A stretch of DNA of 64,000 nt from Amoebidium appalachense. Its lineage: Eukaryota > Protista > Ichthyosporea. Below the pieces are notes generated by a model, which did no database searches, had not been told where the DNA came from, and saw only the letters and a program-made list of their open reading frames with translations. Below, in pieces: positions 38,595 to 52,200 of this stretch. The first letter of the stretch is position 1; the number at the start of each line of letters is the position of its first letter. The position numbers were made by a program, and so were the translations under genes. The stretch spans positions 558,001-622,000 of the forward strand of contig CAVNZM010000008.1 of the NCBI GenBank assembly GCA_963693365.1, in the 5' to 3' direction.

Positions 38595-41500
38595 ATGGAC
38601 GCCCCACTCGGCATCCACATCGAGTACTGGTGAGTACCTACACGTTCTGTGCCTGCACTGTGCTGCGAGCTCTCCTCAAGGATTTCCCAACACACCTAAC
38701 TAAGTTGCCGATATGCAACTGCCAAGTTAATAATGTCGCCCAATCATTGTGCTGTCGTCTATTAATATTGTGCCTTATGCCCGTCAGTAACTACCCTAAC
38801 GCACCAATCTGCATGACCTAGCTAACACCTAAACCCCCCTCCCCCCACCCCCCCCCCCCCCCCCCCCCCCCCCCCGCCTCCCCCCAGCTCGTCATGCGGC
38901 TACCGGCCCCGAGCCAATGAGCTGCAAGGACGGCTGGGGGAGGCGTTTGGGCCCAAGGTGGATGTGGCCCTGGCAGCAGGAAGGGGGGGGTCGTTTGAGG
39001 TCACTGCTGGGGACAAGCTGCTGCACTCAAAGCTGCAGGCTGGAAAGTAAGTGCAAGCAGACAATCTTGTAACATCATATGTAATGATATTACTTATTGC
39101 AATGAATACAGAAAGGCATCACTACATTACCAAGTCAATTTGCAATGGCCCTTGCACCGCAAACAACCCTAGTACATACAGCTCGTGCAAAACATAGTAA
39201 GCAACCCACCTTGCACTTAAATACCGTGACTTTGCACTGTCACTATCACCACGACCACGGTGCACACCGTGCTCAACACAACTGTGAGTGTCCCCACTAT
39301 ATATACTACGTGCACTCTCTGTATGGGCATTCAAATTTGCACACCTTAACACGTATATAAACCACATGCCTGCACAACAAAACAACTTGTTCATGTTACG
39401 CAAACCTACACCACCCACTCAACCCCCCCTCTCCCCTCCTCCCCCTCCTCCCCCCCCCCCCCCCCCCCTCCCTCCCCCCCATCTTTCTTAGGTGGGCCAA
39501 GGTGTCAGCCATCATTGAGCAGGTGGGGGCCATTCTGGGCGACCAATCAGCCGCCGAGACGGTTGCAGCCGCCAGAGATGTTGAGACGGAGGACACCTCG
39601 TTTATCGATGCCACTGCACGCAAACACGTGCTCGTGGTGTTCTCAAAGACCACGTGCCCACACTGCGACCGTGCAAAGAAGATTCTGGCAGCTGCCGGGG
39701 CCCACCCACACGTGGTCGAGTTGGATATGCGCCCGGACACCACTGCAATTCAGGTGGGTGACGTCATCCTTGTTAAAGCTTGCTCCTGGCCCATATATAC
39801 TACATAGATCATGTGTCGACCACCTACTATGGTATCCGGGATTCTCGGACTGAAGATAATCCTTTGCTGGTTCCCCTTGGGCTCCTGAGAAGAACAAAGT
39901 TTTTGCGGATACATTCATCCCGAATCTCTACAGCCCCTCGCCCCCCCCCCCCCCCCCCCCCAATCAAAAAAAAGAAAGAAAGAAGAAAGGGAAAAAAAGA
40001 AAGCTTCACCAACAGGCACACCCAGGGCGCACTTCTCCCAAATGCAAACGCTTATAACTAGCGTGTCATACTGTCCACACACCTAGTTTCCCGTTCGATG
40101 ATTCCTCACATATGCAGTGCAACACCTTGCTCACTTTATGATTGGCTGGGGGTCATCAGGATGCCTTGGCCGAAATCACTGGCCGCACCACCGTGCCCAA
40201 CGTTTTCATTGGCGGAAAGTCAGTCGGGGGTGCCGATGAGCTCGAGCAGCTGCAGGCAGCGGGCACACTGATTGGTGTGTTGAAGGATGCCGGCGTGCCA
40301 TTGGATGATGCCCCGTACAGCCCCCAGCCCAGCGTGGTGGTGACCAATAGCGTGGCCCTGTCTCCCTCCAAGAAGACCCACGGGGACACCCACATGCTGC
40401 AGGTACATGCACACCTTCACGTGCCACACTTGCAGAACACCAAGTCAAGATTTTGTGTCGAGACACACAAAGTTGCACACACGTACTGGCAAGCAGGCAC
40501 GCACAAAGGTGCGCTTACAACCACTTACCCCAGTCTTGCAATGTATTCCCACATCCGTCCTAATTTGTTACAGCTCTTACTGTCAGATATTGGCTAAACC
40601 ACAAAGATTCATTATAATTTCAACACCCTCTCTCCCTCTGCCGCATTAGCACCATTTTGCCCCCCCCCCCCCCCCCCCCCCCCTCCCCCCTCCCTCCACC
40701 GCATCCCCCCTCTCCCCACCCCACCCTCCTTCCACTTCCTAACCCTCTTCCCGCAGATGCCCCACCCATCCAATGGCTCGACCCTGACCCTTGTGAGTGG
40801 GTCTGATGCCGTGTCTGCCCGTAAGCACCTAGAGGGCCCGTTTGGCTGGCCCTCTTGGCTGGTGTGGCCGTTCTTCTTCTTCCCCTACAACGTCGACATC
40901 ATGACGAGCAGAGCTACCTCTTGCACAGTGGCCATTCTTGCTGCCGTGGCTGCCGGGGGCTACGACACTGAGTGGGGCCGCTGGCTGGCCACGCTATTGG
41001 CTGCCGACTATGTGCTAAGAATAGTCTGGGCTGGAAGGGCTTCTCTAATTGGCTCAGTCGTCAGCACCGTCACCGTGCACTTCAAGCCCGTCATGTATCC
41101 TGGACCCCCCCGTCAATTTGCGCAGATGGTGGGGTTTATGTTTGCAGGCCTGGCTACCCTCCTGCGGTGGCTGGAGCCAGGAGACAAGGCGTATGAGCTT
41201 GCCGGCAGCACGATTCTTGCCATGTTAGCAGGGGCTGCAGCAATGGATGGATTCCTTAACTTCTGCCTGGGCTGTCTTTTCTTCCGCATTGGATCGCAGA
41301 TATTGGGTGCTGACCCGAGTGCAAAGTGTGATAGTATCCAATCAGAAGACACGGCAAATCAGGTCTGGTGGCGCAAGGTTACGGCTGACGGAAGGCCCCA
41401 GGACATGGCGGCTAGCCTGCCCAATGAGGACGAGCCCCGGCACATTCCTTGCGTCTACAAGTAGGTGCCCCCCTACTACTTGCATGTTCATCTCTCTCTC

Positions 41501-42407
41501 CCATCGAGCCACCTACCATAAGCCATTGACGCACCAATGCATACACATGGACGATGGGAAAGGGAACAAAAGTGGGAACTCCTGTTTTTTCTTTTTTTTT
41601 TTTTTTTTCTTTTTTTTTGTGTGTGTGGGTGGGTGGGGGTGGGGGAGGGAGGGGGGGGAGGAGGGGGGTGGGGGGGGGGACTAGCAAACGGGCAAGAAAA
41701 AAACGTGTCTGCCTATCGCCTAAGTAGCCAATCATCATGTGCTGTTTCTAACCATGTATGGCAGGACCAAGAATGATGAGCAGGAGAAGGCCGGCTTCTC
41801 CATTGTGCGGCACACCGACAGCACCTACTTGGTGTGGCCCCTCTCTATGGCCGGTCTGGCTGCCTGCTGGAAGATGGCACACGACTCCCCCCTGCTCAGC
41901 GTCCCTAAGGTGCACACCCCCCCCCCCCCCCTCCCCCCCGGGGATCCCCTCCCTCCCGTCCAACCCTCTCCCCCCTTCCCTTCTTGTGTGGAAAAGTCTC
42001 AAAAACAATAAAGAAAAAGAGCATTGCACGTATTTCGGATGTGGCAAATGATACTCGTAAATGTTGCTATCCAGCATGCACATATCTTTTTGTGTGCGGT
42101 AACCTGCACATCACCACCGTATTTGGCATTTTAATGTGCTAGTGGTGATTGGTGCCCAGACTGAAACCAACAAAGCAACTAGCATTCCAAACATGCTGCT
42201 CTCTGAGCAAGTTGCTTTTCCATAATTGTCAACCCAATGTATAGTTAAACATAGTATTTTGCAATCACCCCATGATGATTCCTAGTCCTGAGCCACCGGC
42301 CCACTGCCCCATCATTTTTGTACAAATTTCTCGCCTCCCTTCCCTCTCATTTTAACACTGAAACTAACACCACCTTGAAACCCCCCCGCCCCCCCCCCCC
42401 CCCCCCC

Positions 42408-42440
<33 letters not shown>

Positions 42441-43453
42441 ACACACACACACATGCAGGGTGCCTGGATTGCCACGTGCATTGCCGCCGCCGCCGTATTT
42501 GCCTTTGTAGTGGGTGCCCTGTGTGCACGTGGTCTCCTTCATCCCCGCAAGGCAGCAAAAGACTGGGATGACCTAAACAAGGCCTCAGCCCTTGGTGCAC
42601 TGCCCCTCACCCTGTGTGTGTTTGCACTCATTCTCCAGTCAGAATCACGCGCATTTGCACGTGCTCTGTTCTGGGTGGGTGCCATCCTGCTCATGCTTCT
42701 GACTGTGGCGCTATGTACTGCCTGGGTGCGTAGGCCCATCTACCGGGGCACCATAGGGCCCATGTGGCTCCTAGTGCCTGTGGGCAATCTGCTGGTGGCT
42801 GCCGTGGCCCCCGTGGTGGATTCGGACTACACGGAGGTAAAAATAGACTCAGGCCCCCCTCTCTCCTCCCCCCCACCCCCCCCTCCTCCTCATCCACACA
42901 CACACAGATGCGCGCGCACACCTCCCTGCAAAGCAATAAGGTCAACCCATTCTCCCCCCCCCCCCCCATCCTCCACTCCCACCCACCCTTACTGCGCTGC
43001 GCCTGCCTCCACCCCCCCCCCCCCCCCCCCACGCTCACCAACAAAAAACAATGATAATGAAACGAAAATAAAAAAAAGGAAATGCAGTCAGGGTAAGAAG
43101 GGGGTGTGAGGGGGGGGGGGGGGGGAGACATTCGGAAGAGAAAATGATAGAGAGAACCATATTTGGCCAGAGAAAAAAACAAAAGCAAATACCATAATAC
43201 TGACTCTTTTTGCACGTGCAGGCCGGCTACCTGTGGCTGGGCATGGGTGGTGCACTGTGGCTTGTGCTGTGGCCAATGACCTTCCAGAGGGTCATGTTTG
43301 GTGCGCCCCTGCAAGAAACCATGAGACCTGGTCTGTTCATCTGGGTGGCTTGCCCACCCATGCTGGCTGTGGCATGGTCGGCACTCAATGGATTCGATGC
43401 GTATGTATCCCCCTAGTTGTTTGATGATGTGGGCATGGGAGAAAAGATAGGGT

Positions 43454-43515
<62 letters not shown>

Positions 43516-45758
43516 GCAGCTATGTGTGAAAGTGTGTGTGTGTGTGTGCTATGCAGTTGTGTGTGTGTGTGTTTGTGTGTCTGTGTGCGCGCACATGTGT
43601 GTTCGTGTGTGTTATGTAGTTGTACATGTGCGCACGTGGGGGTGTATATTGGGCTGCTCACGTGCTTACCCAGAAAGGAAGATTCACCATAAATTGTTTG
43701 CATCAAGCCACAACCCACATACTCACACCCCTACCCCCCCAGGCTAGCCCTTGTGTGCACACAACTAGGCCTCGGCCTTCTACTCTTCATGATGGGCCTG
43801 TTTGCCACAGGCTATCTGGGCCGCAATAGGTTCGACGTAGGCTACTGGGCATATGCATTCCCCCTGCAGGTTCAGACAATGGCATTGCTGCTGTGGTACC
43901 AGGCTAGGCCCACAGACGGCTCAGAGGTACATGTTGCACACTTGCCCCCCCCCCCCCCCCCCCCCCCCCCTCCCCCCCCTCCCCCCACCTACCTGTGGGT
44001 GACTGGAGCCCCTTACCGACAACTTGCTATGCATATGCTGTGTGTGCTTTTCAACCTGTATATTGTTGTCCTTCTTGAACATATAGTTCGTCTGCACAGC
44101 AAATGGATGCCTATTCTAGTGATGCTTAGAGGAGCTATCACACGTTCACTTAGCACGCATTGCGCATATCCCCTCCCCCCCCCCCCCCCTTCTCCTTCCC
44201 CCCCCCCCCCCTCCCCCTTCTCCCTTCCCCCCCCCCCTCCTCCCCCCCCCCCTCGGTGCATTCTCCCTTCCCTTTACACGTAAGCTCACCTTCTCCCTTC
44301 ACCCTATATTCGTACTTTACCCTTTTCCTCCCTTTCAGCTCCCCCCACCCCCCACCCCCCCCCAAAAGCCCCCCCTCCCCCCCGCGGCCCCCCAGCTTAC
44401 ACTCTGTCCCATCTACAGCATCGTAACCCAGATCCACCTCTTCCCTCCCCCTTCACCTCCCCCAATGTACTCTTTGTCCCATCTATGATATGTGCCGCAT
44501 GCTAACCTCCCCTTCCCCCCCCCCCCCCCCCCCCAAAAGAAAAAAAAATAAAAAAATCCGCACACACAAACACACACACACATACACACAGTTCTTTGCC
44601 AAGGCCGGGCTAGCCATAGTGAGCTACAGCACATCCATCCTTCTAGCAAACACCATTGCCTCCATCAGTGGCCGCATGGGTCTCTTTGTGGCTCCTGCGG
44701 CCGCTGGGCCTGGCATGCTGGGCAAGCTGTCCCACTATGCATTCCGAGGCGCACTCTCAAAGATGCAGACCCTCGCTAAGCGCCTACATAGCCCTGCGGC
44801 ACTGCGTGAGCTAGCAACACTAGTTGCTGAGTTTGGTGTTGCACATCACGAACACATGGTGTATGAAGACACGGTTATGTTTCCCCAGCTAGATGCATTC
44901 TTCCCTGGTGTTAGTCGCATGGCAGGGCAGCAACACGAAGGTAACGTCGGAGACCTGACTGCCCTGTGTGATTTGATGCAGACTTTAGCCCCGGCCACAT
45001 ACAATGCCGTTACACAGCGTGTGCAAGGGGGTAGGTGTGTGGCACCAACAGACACAGACCCTATCCCCAGTGCACGGGATGCAGGGCGGGTAGTGGAATT
45101 AATGGATGTAGTTGGTCGTGAGGCAACAGAGCATATGGATTGGGAGGAAGCCCACCTCGGCCCACTTTTGCGCAAATACCTTAACACAAAGATGCACAAG
45201 ACCCTGGCAAGGAAGATGTGGGAGGGCACGGAGCCAAACAAGTGGAGGGTGATACTGCCATTCCTCGTCAACAACCAGGTGCTACACTTCAGACGTGTGC
45301 AGTTGCTCAAGGTGTGTGCGTGCGTGTGGGTGTGTGTGTGAGGGGGGAGGGGGGGGGGAGGGGAAGGAGCAGTGTTGGCTATGCTGGTGGGCTGCTCAGT
45401 TGTGGTTATTAGTAAGTGCTAACACCCAGAGTACCTGGTTTTAAGGTGGTGAATAAAGTCCCGGGGAGCTTGGTGGGTGGGGGTGGGGGGAGGAGGGGGG
45501 GCTGGTGTGCATGTGCCGGGGGGGAGAATGAAGGGGGGAGGGGGGGGGGGGGGGGGTGATTTGGGCTATGGGGGAGGGTGTGCCGATCAAAATTCTATTT
45601 TTTATTTTCAGGCGTGGATTGCCGCCATGCCTGAGCGGGCGCATCTGGTTGGCCAGATGGTCTACGAGGGTGTAGACGCCTTCCTGTGGACCCGATTGAT
45701 TGCTGAGCTGCCTGAGCTGGCCCCCCGCCACGCCCGCCACCACCACCACTACGCCTAG
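38595..45758 (+). CDS. Five-domain fusion (~1051 aa): SelW/SelT-like Rdx + glutaredoxin + DUF4395 + SLAC1/TehA (TDT) channel + hemerythrin
   Basis: Eleven GT-AG exons join in phase without stops: 38595-38629, 38888-39046, 39492-39753, 40160-40402, 40757-41460, 41765-41909, 42459-42836, 43222-43400, 43743-43926, 44592-45311 and 45612-45758. Motifs: IEYCSSCGY..GSFEV..LHSKL (Rdx); VFSKTTCPHC..TVPNVFIGGKSVGG (Grx); PRQFAQ..NFCLGC (DUF4395); WLLVPVGNL..RPGLFI..YWAYAFP (TDT); H..HMVYED..H..HMDWEE (hemerythrin). Confidence 0.88.
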
Positions 45759-47267
45759 ATATGGAAGATGCCTAAATATGGAAATATGATGGTTCCTCGA
45801 TACCCGCCACCACCACCACCACGACTAAATATGGCAGTTGTCTAGATATGGAAATGTGGCAGTGCCTCGCGGGTGCCTTTTCATTGTTTTCACCAATAAG
45901 AGCGTGCTTTTGTATAGGCCAATACGGGCAGTAGTGTAAATCAGCAATAGAACAAAAAAGGTAGGAATATATCCAGAGTGCTGTAGGTACTGTGTGCACA
46001 TATAGAGTGTAGATCTGCCGTAAGTACCTATGAGCACTGCGGCTAGTGCCTGGACGGCCAATATCGACCTAATGCATATCTGTGTGCACCAATTTCTAAT
46101 TGGTGTTGCTATCAGTTGTTAATAGATCACGTTCAATAAAGAAAGGCAAGCCACACCCAGCGGCCTCCGTTTTTCTTTCCCCAAAATGTTTTTGTTACTT
46201 GCCCTTTGACAGGTCCAGTGTTCTTCTGTATGCATCCTCTTTTTTCTCTTCTTAGGTGGTGGTGGGGACAGGGGAAGGCAGTATTCATTCCCTTTTCCAG
46301 TCGTGCACTGCATCACGTTTATGAGCCGCGTGCACGTGACCGTGACCCCCCCCCCCCCCCCCCCAACGCCTCCCCTCCCCCCCCAACACACACACACCAA
46401 CCTCCTTTCCTCTCTGGACATGCACTGTTCAAGTATGTCACACTGTGCGTCTCCCCCTGCATTTTCTGGATCACACCCCGCATGTGAGCTTTGTGTGTAC
46501 GTCGTGCCATGGCCGTGAAACACTCTTTCCCCTCCTCTTCCCCAACCCCCCCCCCCCTCCCCTCGCACCCCCCCGGGCACACACAGTCACGTGCACGCGC
46601 GCACACACACACCGTGACACACACGCGCACGCACACACACGCACGCATGCTTGCACGCACACACACACCGACCCACCCGTCCACCCGCCCGCCCACACAC
46701 CCGCCCACACACACACCAACGCACACACGGACACACACCTCTCCCCCTCCCCCCAACCTTCCCTCCCTCCCCCCCCCCCCCCCCCCACCCACCCACCCAC
46801 CCACCCACCTCCCCCTCCCCAACACTCCCCCCCCCCCCGGGCCCCCCCACCCCCCACCCCCCCCCCCCCCCCCCCCCCCCAACCCCCACCCCATCCCCCA
46901 AAACACACACACACACACACACAGATGCAAACAGCAGACACACAACCATATCCCTCAACCCATCCATAAAACCACACACACACCCTTCCACTTTAGCCCT
47001 TGTGACTCCCCCATCCAAACAATTTCTCCTTCCCCCACCTCTCCCCCCCCCCAACTCCCGCCCCCACCTCCCCATTCACCCACCCATCAAAACCGTTAGA
47101 GCTCAATCGTCCACCCCCCCACACCCCACTCCCCCCCCCTCCCCCCCCCCCTTCCCCCACTCCATTTCCGCCCCGAGCCCCATCTATCCAAGCCGTCTCA
47201 CCTCACCCAACCACCCATTCACCCATCCACCTAACATCAAAAAGTCTACCCCCCCCCCCCCCCCGCC

Positions 47268-47820
47268 TTCCCTCCCCTCCACCCCTCCACCCACTCCTCT
47301 CACCCCCTCCTCCTCCCCCCCCCCCTCTTCCCCTCCCTCCCCTCCACCCCTCCACCCACTCCTCTCACCCCCTCCTCCCCTCCCCCCCCCCCCTCTTCCC
47401 CTCCCTCCCCTCCACCCCTCCACCCACTCCTCTCACCCCCTCCTCCCTCCCCCCCCCTCTTCCCCTCCCTCCCCTCCACCCCTCCACCCACTCCTCTCAC
47501 CCCCTCCTCCTCCCCCCCCCCCTCTTCCCCTCCCTCCCCTCCACCCCTCCACCCACTCCTCTCACCCCCTCCTCCTCCCCCCCCCCTCTTCCCCTCCCTC
47601 CCCTCCACCCCTCCACCCACTCCTCTCACCCCCTCCTCCTCCCCCCCCCCCTCTTCCCCTCCCTCCCCTCCACCCCCTCCACCCACTCCTCTCACCCCCT
47701 CCCCTCCCCCCCCCCCCCTCTTCCCCCTCCCTCCCCTCCACCCCTCCACCCACTCCTCTCACCCCCTCCTCCTCCCCCCCCCCCTCTTCCCCTCCCTCCC
47801 CTCCACCCCTCCACCCACCC
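47268..47820. repeat. C-rich degenerate minisatellite (~60-bp unit)
   Basis: Repeated ccctccacccctccacccactcctctcacccc...ctcttcccctccct units. Confidence 0.8.
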
Positions 47821-48656
47821 CTACTACACACTCACCCCCGTACACACACACACTCGTCCACCCACTCATGACCACCCAACTACCCACATACCCTAACATC
47901 CATCCACCCACCCATCCACCTCCCCTAACACCCACCCGCTCCCCCTCCACCCTCCCCCCCTCCCCCCCCCCCCCCAACACACACACCCACCCACTCACCC
48001 ACCCACGCACACACCCTTAGACCTACCCTATAGCACCCACCCACAGGTTAACACACCCACCCACACACCCACCCATTTAAAGAGTTCTCCCTCCTCAACC
48101 CACCTACCCACCCATTCATGCACCTGGTCTATCCACCCACCCAGCCCAGCCAACCATCCAAACACCCACAGACCGATCCTCCTCCTCCCCCCCCCCCACA
48201 ACCCCCATCCCCCCCCCTCCGCGCACCCCTCCACCAACCCAACCAAACCGTGTCACCTCACTCACCCGGCCGTGACACTTGCGCATTCACTGCTGACCCG
48301 CTCGCTTACTCCAAACTCACTATCCCTATTCCCCCTATCCCCCCTTCTCCCCCCCTCCCCCCTCCCCCCTCCCCCCTCCCCCCCCCCCCCCCCAACACAC
48401 ACGCATACATGCAAGCACCGTTCCACCCTGATCATTGCAATGAAGCATTTTGCAGGGGATTGGAAAAGGTTTCAATCGATGGGGTACGAGGTGTGTAGGT
48501 GGTGGGTTAGGGAACATGGGTGAAGGGGAGGGGAGAGAGAACGGGGAAAAAGAGAACCAATGGGGGCGGGAGGGGGGGGGGAGAAGGAGGCTCGGAAATG
48601 GTGTGTGTGCTTGTGGGTGAGCGGGTGGGTGGAGAGTTCAGCGGGTGGGATGGGGT

Positions 48657-49332: not shown

Positions 49333-51042
49333 TTATTCATTGGCTAGTACGGTTTGTGGGAAAAAGAACCCAGCCTGTCTTGCCTCCCTCATCCAATCAT
49401 TGTCCAGTGTGCATAGTGTCTCAATATAATCGTGCCCATTTTGGGCCAACCCCAGTCTTTGACCAATAAAATTACGTGGTTCAAAACCCCCCTTTTCAAT
49501 TTTCAATACGAAATCCGCTAAATCGCGCGCAATCGTTTCCACACTGCCGCCCATGCCGCATTGTGTGCACACATATGGAATGTCGGTGGGTTGTTGGGGA
49601 TGAGGCAGGGCCCGGCCCACGTCCGTCGGGAGGGTTCCGTTGCCCGTAGCAACCACCAATAGGGGCACGTCTAGCGCCATCGCATGATCTATAGCCAATC
49701 CCTGCGTCTCGCCATGTGCAAGAAGTATCATGCCACGTGACCGGCGTAGTTCCCGGTAGTATTCCGCCTGGGAATAACTCCCATACACCATCTTCACATA
49801 TTCCAGCCCCAACCCACCTAGTGCACGCTCCACCGCACTCACGTCACCATCCGAGCGAGTTTTTACATACAGTGTGTATATGTTTCGTGCCCGGTGTGAC
49901 TTCTGGGCCGTAGGAATGAGCTCAAAATCTCTGCTCGCATCAACGGCTGTGGGCAAAACAAGATAGTTGCTGAATAGGCCCCAATGATCCTGACCCCATG
50001 TGGATATACATTTTACCTGCTGTTGGATATTCGTGATATTCCTGTGGCACCGTAGATAGTCCGATGATGCCATGAAATTTATCGGTTGCATGTGCAAATT
50101 CGTACCTAGGACAGCCGCGTTAGTGGCCCGTGGGTGGGATTTATGAATGGGATAACCGTCTTTGTGTAGGACTACCTCCCCGTCTGCAGCCCAATTTTCG
50201 ACTGATTTTCGAAGTGCGATTATGTCCACCGTAGGTCCTATGATTATGCGCGTGGTGGTATTGAACGGCCTTAGCCCCAGTGCGGCCGCAGTCATAATTT
50301 GCGCCGCCAGCTCATTGGAATTAAACCCACCAATCACAACGTGCACCACGTCATACTTCCACCACTCAGGGTCGTTGAATGCAAACGGGTAGCCAATCCG
50401 CCGCATCTGGCTAATCAGCGTATTCAACACCACTGCAGGGCCCCCATGACCGCCTACTTCCTCTGGAGGAAACACCAAATTTACGCTCATGTTTCCAGGC
50501 AGACATCTGGTGGGCAGGCCGGTGTATGTGTCTTTGGCGGTTTGCAGGTCGTATTGGAATGTTTGGTAACCCGGCCCGGCGTGTTCAAAGGACGTGCGGA
50601 ATGGGTCTGTGGGTGATTCGGTTGGCACACAAAAACGAACAGTGTCGATTGCATAGTGGGCCACGTGTTCCATAAATGCCCAGTGGCCTCTGTCTCGCCA
50701 ATCGTTCATCCTCGTGCGGTTATCGTTCGCTAGACATTGAAAATCTTGCGGCGGAGGTTGGGCAGCAAAACTGAAACGGGTAGAATTTGAAAAACTGGCG
50801 GTAGGTGTTGGTGTCTGGTGCGTGTATGTGGGAAAGGTAGTGTATGTGTCTGTGCTGGGGGATTTCGTTCCTGTCTGGTTCAATGAAGCATCCCAGATTC
50901 CACTCTCCCACACAAACGTCTGTAGTGGGCGATGAGTCCCGTGCAAGGCTGAAAAAAGGAGAAAAGAGCTGAGGGCAAATGAAAAGCCCACAGCCCACCG
51001 TGGGCAGGCGGCCTGAAGACACTTGGCTGTACGGTGAGGCAT
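49333..51042 (-). CDS. Intronless putative GT-B (GT4-like) glycosyltransferase, type II membrane protein, 569 aa
   Basis: Long ORF free of microsatellites, with an N-terminal hydrophobic anchor (WAVGFSFALSSFLLFSAL), a Thr/Pro-rich stem, GGHGGPAVV, and YGSY...ETQGLAIDHAMALDVPLLV, resembling the GT4 E-x7-E region. Confidence 0.72.
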   Translation of the reverse strand: MPHRTAKCLQAACPRWAVGFSFALSSFLLFSALHGTHRPLQTFVWESGIWDASLNQTGTKSPSTDTYTTFPTYTHQTPTPTASFSNSTRFSFAAQPPPQDFQCLANDNRTRMNDWRDRGHWAFMEHVAHYAIDTVRFCVPTESPTDPFRTSFEHAGPGYQTFQYDLQTAKDTYTGLPTRCLPGNMSVNLVFPPEEVGGHGGPAVVLNTLISQMRRIGYPFAFNDPEWWKYDVVHVVIGGFNSNELAAQIMTAAALGLRPFNTTTRIIIGPTVDIIALRKSVENWAADGEVVLHKDGYPIHKSHPRATNAAVLGTNLHMQPINFMASSDYLRCHRNITNIQQQVKCISTWGQDHWGLFSNYLVLPTAVDASRDFELIPTAQKSHRARNIYTLYVKTRSDGDVSAVERALGGLGLEYVKMVYGSYSQAEYYRELRRSRGMILLAHGETQGLAIDHAMALDVPLLVVATGNGTLPTDVGRALPHPQQPTDIPYVCTQCGMGGSVETIARDLADFVLKIEKGGFEPRNFIGQRLGLAQNGHDYIETLCTLDNDWMREARQAGFFFPQTVLANE

Positions 51043-52200
51043 AATTCTTTAATTAATGAAAACGGCCTGCTTCATGACATAGGCTATGGAACATGTGCTT
51101 TTTGGGAAATGGTGCACATTGAATACAATAACTCAGCTACACGAATTTGGCAGCGGTTCGACACCGTGACGCCTAGCCATCGGTGCATGCACACCGTGTG
51201 GTCCGGTCACATTTGCATAAGCGAATGACCTAAGGTGGAAATTGTGTCCCCAAAATCCTGATACTATAGTAGCGCCACATACAACCTGGCAGGCATGTGT
51301 CGTGCGTGTGTTCCATTAGACTGTTGCTCGTTTAAATATTCCATAGTTTTGTCAACAAGCTACCCCTGCTAGCTGCATATGCTGCAGGTATCCAGCTGAC
51401 AAATAGCCTGCATATGTATGACTAGGCACAAGCTGTACTGCTATGAAACAAAGGTGAATCTATAAGTGCTGCGATAGCAGACACAACAACCTTTGAATTT
51501 ACATTACAACTCCATAGTCCACATACCTAATGAAGAATACACCGTTGCCGTAGGCTACTCTCATTATATGGGGTCGGGAATCTGGGGGGTCCATGGCCGC
51601 GTAATTGCTGATCAATAGACTCTTGAATTTGAGCCGAGCTGCTAGGGCTGCTCAGCATGCATGTTAATGATATCGGCTCAATGTAAGTAGTACAGAGATG
51701 CTAGACGTGCCTGTGCTTTATAACTAGAGATTGTAAATATAAAATGATAATAAAATCTATGTTGTACATTTTGAGTATCTCAAACGCTTGTCTTTTCGAC
51801 AGACACTGACACTAAACGTTTCGCGAGTTTGCGAGCTCGCAATGCTCGCATATTGATAATAGCTAAATTTTGGGGGTACCATGAATGAATCTAGCCAAAT
51901 CTTGCCAACATGTGATTGGCGGATCTACATATTGACAGCACGCCAATCACAGGCCAATCAGCTAACGAAGCAATTTGATTGGGTTGACAATGGCCTATGA
52001 GAAGTGCGGGAGGCAAGACCATTTCTTGCTACCGTCGTGGCTCCCCGAGACTCATGGACATGAAATCAGAGGCAAGTACGGAAGTTTATTATTTTGAAAA
52101 TAAAATAAATACTCTAAAAGAATATTATGAATAACTCTTGATGGACATCTAACGAACCATGAAAACTATGGTGTGTGTACGTGCATGTAAGTGCACGTAC

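Follow-up and report, generated by a model that had tools for sequence, protein, structure and literature searches.

A predicted TDT/SLAC1-type anion channel joined to thiol-redox, DUF4395 and hemerythrin-like domains in Amoebidium appalachense and other protists

Results

The gene and its predicted product

We analysed a window of 64,000 nucleotides (nt) from the ichthyosporean Amoebidium appalachense (contig CAVNZM010000008.1, positions 558,001 to 622,000 of the forward strand; all coordinates below are those of the window), which holds a gene of 11 exons on the forward strand (38595..45758), with its ATG at 38595 and its stop at 45758. A preliminary description had read this gene as 11 in-phase exons carrying the dithiol motifs CSSC, CPHC and CLGC, and that reading holds. 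All ten introns are of the GT..AG type with compatible phases, and the spliced model of 3156 nt encodes 1051 amino acids (aa), with one terminal stop, no internal stop, and CSSC (aa 12–15), CPHC (120–123) and CLGC (403–406) as the only CxxC motifs. The exons have a G+C content of 55–66%, the introns carry poly-C and CA repeats, and the region as a whole is intron-rich and eukaryotic in character. A per-exon Pfam scan, covering ten of the 11 exons since exon 1 is too short, gave the order Rdx, glutaredoxin, DUF4395, SLAC1 and hemerythrin, with E values of 1e-10 for Rdx, 2e-9 and 4e-4 for glutaredoxin, 2e-17 for DUF4395, 7e-14, 7e-8 and 1e-5 for SLAC1 (exons 7–9) and 4e-7 for hemerythrin. Exons 6 and 11 had no Pfam match, though both match the family profile. 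The exons are as follows.

Exon 1, 38595..38629 (+): start codon and first strand of Rdx (SelW-like); intron 1 splits the first Cys codon of CSSC.
Exon 2, 38888..39046 (+): body of Rdx, in the Cys form and without a selenocysteine (Sec) codon.
Exon 3, 39492..39753 (+): last Rdx helix, linker and N-terminal half of glutaredoxin, with CPHC at 39655–39666.
Exon 4, 40160..40402 (+): C-terminal half of glutaredoxin (TVP, GG-A-D) and linker; Pfam and TIGR02180 matches.
Exon 5, 40757..41460 (+): DUF4395, with four predicted long helices and a helix beginning at CLGC (41264–41275); an in-frame ATG comes first.
Exon 6, 41765..41909 (+): conserved linker, predicted to be cytosolic, and first TDT helix; recognised by family profile (E 3e-6) and alignment.
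Exon 7, 42459..42836 (+): middle helices of the TDT/SLAC1 channel.
Exon 8, 43222..43400 (+): TDT channel, with conserved R677.
Exon 9, 43743..43926 (+): TDT channel, with the codon of gate Phe741 at 43858–43860.
Exon 10, 44592..45311 (+): last TDT helix and hemerythrin-like domain (H811, H851, E855, H878, H944, E948).
Exon 11, 45612..45758 (+): conserved helical C-terminal extension and stop; family profile E 3e-13.

As judged by sequence comparison, the five-domain layout is a genuine feature of one predicted polypeptide, as the preliminary description had proposed. Scored against a profile of 49 relatives (see below), the spliced model reached 588 bits over aa 97–1050. A six-frame scan of the window with the family profile returned eight segments at E 0.01, all of them within the gene and in profile order; the frame of exon 9 was not among the passing segments, and exons 1 and 2 lie outside the profile. 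Alignment with the three closest relatives covers or adjoins nine of the ten exon junctions in at least one of them; the exception, junction 4, is in a linker that varies. These relatives carry the fusion as single open reading frames (ORFs), with an Rdx tail, glutaredoxin and the DUF4395–channel–hemerythrin core in P0120, and Rdx and the core in P0137 and P0143, and the fusion is therefore not a splicing guess. Against a local Rdx profile, the score rose from 28.5 bits to 43.2 when exon 1 was added, and adding the Rdx helix of exon 3 gave 46.8 bits, compared to 44.3 ± 1.2 for shuffled tails, a weak gain that 20 of 500 shuffles equalled. It is highly improbable, in our estimation, that the locus holds two or more separate genes, or that its main transcript starts at ATG 40757 or ends just inside intron 2. 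Such an arrangement could explain why exon 5 opens with an ATG, why exon 2 read into intron 2 meets an immediate stop (giving an Rdx protein of 65 aa), why chance ATG..GT stretches occur in intron 2, and why some relatives begin just before DUF4395. However, it conflicts with the single ORFs of P0120, P0137 and P0143 and with the last Rdx helix in exon 3, whose frame has no Met upstream of CPHC, while the candidate stretches in intron 2 are AT-rich and resemble non-coding DNA.

A broad family of protist proteins

Exon 5, searched against longer proteins, matched one of 4152 candidates, P0001, whose single ORF holds glutaredoxin, DUF4395, SLAC1 and hemerythrin. Starting from P0001, 8000 scored candidates yielded 49 clusters, and 25 of these list all four of the core Pfam families. 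From a profile search of 1.84 billion representatives, which yielded 426 proteins at E ≤1e-30, the best 150 of 426 were taken. Pooled, the searches gave 194 proteins. DUF4395, the channel and hemerythrin are all covered in 88, which entered the tallies given below, the 106 partial sequences being set aside; these 88 are kin, and the tallies do not represent independent events.

Members named among the 21 that were looked up are Chlorochromonas danica, Mallomonas annulata, Rhynchopus euleeides, Salpingoeca macrocollata, Myrmecia bisecta, Porphyridium purpureum, Raphidocelis subcapitata and Rigifila ramosa, so that the fusion occurs in a choanoflagellate, in green, red and golden algae, in a diplonemid and in Rigifila. 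Among the matches listed, the closest named relative of the Amoebidium protein is that of the choanoflagellate S. macrocollata. The protein P0008 (RYH22982.1), labelled as coming from an 'archaeon' metagenome-assembled genome, nests in a chrysophyte-containing clade of a first, quick tree and likely represents a eukaryotic contig in an archaeal bin. This tree, built from 45 of 50 rows after five sequences shorter than 730 aa were left out, placed Amoebidium on a long branch and was uninformative on its position. None of 71 pattern matches to P0034 in metagenome contigs was confirmed, and none of 232 in viral contigs belonged to the family. Database labels for members include 'tellurite resistance protein', 'SLAH3' and 'glutaredoxin'. 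The preliminary description had known of no characterised protein with this architecture, and a description of the five-domain fusion was likewise absent from the literature searched, subscription journals and supplements lying outside that search. Every domain comes from a known family and the assembly itself is unstudied; it is no one-off and belongs to a broad protist family.

The channel

The motif WAYAFP lies at aa 737–742, and its Phe (F741, in helix 9) aligns with the Phe of WAFSF in TehA and is F in 85 of 88 relatives, in agreement with the earlier suggestion that a gate-type Phe is retained; the R677 column has R in 84 of 88. An AlphaFold model of the relative P0042, built from 49 sequences (predicted local distance difference test, pLDDT, 87; predicted template modelling score, pTM, 0.85 over 988 aa), has ten channel helices at 387–737, and its domains are predicted to pack together. 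The TDT part matched SLAH1 (Z 38.5, root-mean-square deviation (rmsd) 2.1, 305 aligned residues) and TehA (Z 38.0, rmsd 2.0, 305 aligned), and Z ranged from 31.8 to 38.5 across SLAH1/3, TehA and SLAC1 in Foldseek and VIA comparisons. The ten-helix TDT fold is thus seen in the P0042 model, and the Amoebidium protein aligns across the whole region.

The closest known systems are the plant S-type channels SLAC1/SLAH and Haemophilus TehA (PF03595; PDB 7wnq, 9m7s, 3m71), which share the ten-helix pore fold and the gate Phe at about 14–18% identity in fold alignments and which have no thiol-redox, DUF4395 or di-iron domains. Two fungal transporters, Ssu1 for sulfite and Mae1 for malate, are single-domain proteins, unlike the Amoebidium protein. 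Both belong to the same Pfam family and conserve the pore Phe (PMC6765260). PMC3509319 describes the pore Phe as the gate of TehA and SLAC1 and the plant channels as opened by phosphorylation, through kinases that act on their cytosolic tails. TehA itself is a bare pore. A pelagophyte TehA transfer is reported in 10.1101/2024.10.30.620910, whose accessible portion states no architecture.

The hemerythrin-like domain

The domain that follows the channel had been described as a di-iron hemerythrin. The six-ligand set is indeed kept (H811, H851/E855, H878, H944/E948), but it is of the hemerythrin-like H-HxxxE-H-HxxxE type and not that of a canonical O2 carrier. Canonical carriers have five His, a Glu and an Asp (H, HxxxE, HxxxH, HxxxxD), whereas position 882 is Val and position 949 is Glu in the Amoebidium protein. 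Conservation among the 88 relatives was 81 for H811, 77 for H851, 75 for E855, 77 for H878, 77 for H944 and 82 for E948. PMC12022348 defines hemerythrin-like (HHE) domains by this ligand pattern in a four-helix bundle, and gives it as the di-iron motif of BRUTUS (BTS), which O2 and H2O2 oxidise reversibly; a protein of Mycobacterium kansasii has a four-His two-Glu site (PMC6993866). FBXL5, BRUTUS/HRZ, YtfE and the mycobacterial HLP share the H-HxxxE-H-HxxxE ligands (PMC12022348, PMC6993866), but occur as stand-alone proteins or in fusion with ubiquitin ligases, whereas here the domain comes after a channel and is followed by a conserved helical C-terminal extension. The hemerythrin part of the P0042 model matched FBXL5 (Z 12.0, rmsd 2.9, 151 aligned) and DcrH (Z 11.9), a level common for helical bundles, and a comparison of the hemerythrin part with PDB sequences gave no match.

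DUF4395 and its bacterial relatives

Exon 5 belongs to DUF4395 (PF14340; 64.3 bits against a cut-off of 24.5) and contains the characteristic R, PxQFA and CxGC; both Cys are kept in 82 of 88 relatives. An AlphaFold model of the Amoebidium domain, made with 17 bacterial rows (pLDDT 88.5), shows four long helices and a short one in the middle, with CLGC opening the helix that follows (135–147 of the model). Foldseek returned no match to this model at E 0.001. With VIA the best Z was 8.8, to generic four-helix bundles, and neither DsbB nor VKOR, membrane thiol oxidoreductases with a four-helix bundle, a CxxC at a helix start and a quinone site, was among the 50 structures shown, which leaves room for a relation. 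Among 1157 candidates from a word-based search, no stand-alone relative of the DUF4395 part was confirmed.

A pattern scan of prokaryote genomes found 16 DUF4395 loci from 60 matches, a sample biased by the pattern, in which five loci are from related Chloroflexi. The bacterial forms share the invariant R, PxQFA and CxxC with the eukaryotic domain, from which they differ in that all are stand-alone proteins of 144–209 aa, rather than parts of a fusion, and have extra Cys. These extra Cys beyond CxxC occur in all 17 bacterial sequences, as an N-terminal CP in eight and a C-terminal CxxC in nine (assigned by eye), and would fit what a thiol relay needs. In the Amoebidium protein C424 (41327–41329, +), a Cys 18 residues past CLGC that is also present in P0137, lies by eye where the C-terminal CxxC of the bacterial proteins has its first Cys. 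At one locus (L006:4968-6122) two DUF4395 genes stand in tandem.

The neighbourhood scan took in 44 of the 126 called ORFs by Pfam and 13 locus ORFs by NCBIfam, the neighbours of loci L002, L005 and L007 lying outside it. DUF4395 stands beside cysH/cysD/cysN and bshB1 at L013, beside an O-acetylhomoserine/serine sulfhydrylase at L015, and beside a cystathionine gamma-synthase-like gene at L010. Rrf2 regulators occur at four of the 16 loci (L012, L013, L015, L016) and a peroxiredoxin at one (L009). The locus from Tsukamurella (L043) has a MarR regulator and a flavodoxin instead, and none of its scanned ORFs belongs to sulfur assimilation. These neighbourhoods weakly suggest a lead toward thiol and sulfur metabolism, the figure of three in 16 having no background control. 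In the literature searched, DUF4395 received passing mentions only. The cysteine-attenuated Ms5788 of Mycobacterium smegmatis, upstream of cysA2, was considered as a further DUF4395 protein; the accessible parts of 10.1101/834739 and PMC4633059 do not mention this domain, and it was not used as evidence.

The N-terminal thiol modules

The Rdx domain of exon 2 scored above the curated cut-offs of Pfam (41.6 bits, cut-off 22.6) and TIGR02174 (40.4 bits, cut-off 34.2) and matched the mouse SelW structure 2npb (E 0.003), which, with CSSC near the N-terminus, places it in the SelT/SelW/SelH family. It is not a selenoprotein, its motif being encoded as TG|C TCG TCA TGC with no in-frame TGA and no internal stop. 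Tandem Rdx pairs were observed in Chloroflexi genomes (L022/L025, L023/L026, L021/L027, L024/L028), a CxxC copy being followed by one with an in-frame TGA at CxxU; the TGA-bearing copy is likely a selenoprotein, although that of L028 has further stops.

The second module has the hallmarks of a class I glutaredoxin, namely CPHC together with K117, TVP163-165 and GGxD175-178 in a domain supported by Pfam and TIGR02180. In class I glutaredoxins the K, TVP and GGxD elements bind glutathione, which reduces the enzyme. The corresponding domain of the P0042 model matches glutaredoxin structures with Z up to 17.2. Both modules thus resemble known proteins, the one class I dithiol glutaredoxins in CPHC, TVP and GGxD and the other SelW/Rdx proteins in CSSC and a SelW-like sequence; they differ in being tethered to a membrane channel, in having Cys for Sec in Rdx, and in swapping among relatives.

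None of the first 49 relatives has Rdx, and only two of the 194 pooled proteins do, P0137 and P0143, both without glutaredoxin. P0137 has CSSC, shares the motif I-E-Y-C-S-S-C-G in one ORF, and is 37% identical to aa 1–97 and 35% to aa 131–1050 of the Amoebidium protein. P0143, an annotated complete ORF of Salpingoeca macrocollata, has CAES at the Rdx motif and 38% identity over aa 248–1050. P0120, whose N-terminus is cut, begins in an Rdx tail and continues through glutaredoxin into the core, as do exons 2–5 (34% over aa 56–1050), and its glutaredoxin is the best match to that of Amoebidium among 109 matches. Among the matches listed, the three closest relatives therefore comprise two with Rdx alone and one with an Rdx tail and glutaredoxin, while most relatives have glutaredoxin alone and P0116 has two glutaredoxins. 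Judged from these sequences, the N-terminal thioredoxin-fold slot is swappable, and may hold glutaredoxin (in most), two glutaredoxins, Rdx, both, or, as seen in 17 of 88, none, some of these 17 probably being truncated. The first glutaredoxin Cys is kept in all 57 sequences that have the column and the second in 48 of 59, with S, T or V in the other 11, which would be compatible with a monothiol reset. A quick tree from the core alone grouped Amoebidium with P0137, P0143 and P0120 (Shimodaira–Hasegawa-like approximate likelihood ratio test, SH-aLRT, 91, below the 95 mark), adjoining forms without an N-terminal module; its 32 of 195 rows were hand-picked to span architectures, and it does not separate repeated gains from losses. 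Proteins with four glutaredoxin repeats were also seen, joined to a pyridine nucleotide-disulfide oxidoreductase in P0203 and to a methionine sulfoxide reductase in P0218, and alone in P0212.

Discussion

From domain content and conservation we infer a topology and a mode of gating. Rdx, glutaredoxin, CLGC and the di-iron domain would all be cytosolic, because there is no signal-type N-terminus and helix counting gives four DUF4395 helices and ten TDT helices. The reading that we favour, tentatively and at somewhat below an even chance, is that of an anion channel of the TDT/SLAC1 type that opens under the control of a thiol switch of its own, the CxGC on DUF4395, and of a di-iron sensor. CLGC, which opens the helix after the fourth DUF4395 helix, would be oxidised or modified (by disulfide, glutathionylation or persulfide), and the tethered thioredoxin-fold domain would reset it, glutaredoxin acting with glutathione and Rdx serving as an alternative input, in parallel and not in series. 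The state of DUF4395 and that of the di-iron centre (iron loading, or oxidation by O2 or H2O2) would then shift the helices around Phe741, so that the thiol and di-iron modules would take the role that kinases have for plant SLAC1. The bacterial neighbours weakly suggest a sulfur oxyanion such as sulfite as the leading guess for the transported anion. A wider proposal, which we consider doubtful, is that this is an old pan-eukaryotic family of self-regulating channels, in which the DUF4395 thiol switch repeatedly recruited different thioredoxin-fold partners, the di-iron site reads iron or O2, and the flux of a sulfur anion is gated. If true, this proposal would describe the earliest known case of a TDT channel carrying its own sensors and would assign DUF4395 a function for the first time.

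Several observations weigh against a redox- and iron-gated channel of this kind. Fewer than five of the six counted ligands are present in 14 of 88 relatives (the count took E949 as the sixth position), among them P0120, the only relative among the matches listed with the Rdx-plus-glutaredoxin layout; from its sequence distribution the di-iron site is apparently dispensable in some members. The Cys pair of DUF4395 is absent in six of 88. Nineteen of the 88 have no glutaredoxin, and 17 of these have no Rdx either, though several are perhaps shortened. The Amoebidium protein itself has Ala177 at the position of the glutaredoxin GG-Cys seen in 66 of 69, and its channel is divergent, with Leu561 where 65 of 88 have a second pore Phe. 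In S. pombe Mae1 the equivalent of the gate Phe is required for transport and does not act merely as a lid (PMC6765260). Finally, sulfur-assimilation or Cys/Met enzymes stand at only three of the 16 bacterial loci.

Other explanations account for some of these features. It is conceivable, though rather unlikely, that the thiol modules are catalytic and the protein is a substrate-processing exporter or importer, in which an oxyanion of sulfur, selenium or tellurium is released or reduced and then passed by the pore, for example sulfite from thiosulfate or from an S-sulfonate adduct on CLGC. The sulfur genes at L013, L015 and L010, the Rrf2 regulators at four loci and the peroxiredoxin at one, the additional Cys of all 17 bacterial proteins, and the yeast sulfite pump Ssu1, which has the SLAC1 Pfam motif (PMC6765260), are all consistent with such chemistry. 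Against it, 13 of the 16 loci and the Tsukamurella locus have no sulfur-assimilation neighbour among the scanned ORFs, no TDT gene was found among the scanned bacterial neighbours, forms without any tethered reductant exist, and the di-iron domain would be left unexplained. The iron chemistry would be more central if CLGC were a metal or Fe-S site, loaded or guarded by glutaredoxin/Rdx and the hemerythrin-like domain, with a channel that is mainly iron-gated. We regard this as distinctly unlikely, since CPHC/CPFC-type glutaredoxins are usually not cluster carriers and most eukaryotic members have only two Cys there; yet the bacterial forms offer three or four, C424 is kept in Amoebidium and P0137, and Rrf2 regulators are among the bacterial neighbours. 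The Cys pair and the di-iron ligands are also lost together more often than expected by chance (four of six, against ten of 82; Fisher p 0.005), a pattern that perhaps just reflects decayed, related sequences.

A role in nitrite or NO handling, with the di-iron site reacting with NO or nitrite, the pore moving nitrate or nitrite and the thiol modules repairing nitrosylated Cys, seems improbable. YtfE has NO reductase activity and the M. kansasii four-His two-Glu protein reacts with NO (PMC6993866), and SLAC1/SLAH3 release nitrate (PMC3509319), but no nitrogen-cycle gene was found among the scanned bacterial neighbours, and ligands are lost in 14 of 88. Least persuasive of the functional alternatives, and very improbable, is the obligatory serial relay of the preliminary description, in which Rdx reduces glutaredoxin and glutaredoxin reduces DUF4395. 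The domain order in the Amoebidium protein and P0120 suits such a relay, as do the three intact dithiols of Amoebidium. The swappable N-terminal module nevertheless argues against it, with Rdx but no glutaredoxin in P0137 and P0143 (two of 194), glutaredoxin without Rdx in most members, and neither in some, and the glutathione-binding elements of the Amoebidium glutaredoxin point to reduction by glutathione instead.

The TDT channels known so far are either bare pores or opened by kinases; one that carried thiol and di-iron modules of its own would, if real, link redox or iron state directly to anion flux in ecologically important microbes, including choanoflagellates, green, red and golden algae, diplonemids and Rigifila. 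The role of DUF4395 would also become tractable, with channel current as the read-out. The Rdx-bearing branch places a SelW-like domain and its likely target on one chain, which to our knowledge is rarely available for Rdx proteins, and the natural variants (Rdx only, glutaredoxin only, both, or a ligand-less hemerythrin) provide ready-made controls. Overall, many algae and protists have an unstudied design in which thiol-redox state, together with iron or oxygen status, likely governs the flow of anions.

Elsewhere in the window, an uninterrupted frame of 571 codons lies at 49336–51048 (−) in intron-rich surroundings; it had no Pfam match, either as a whole at 1e-5 or for its C-terminal 459 aa at 0.1, and its C-terminal part is glycosyltransferase-like by eye. 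Directly downstream of the channel gene is a C-rich low-complexity tract (46300–48500) with a GC skew of −0.95.

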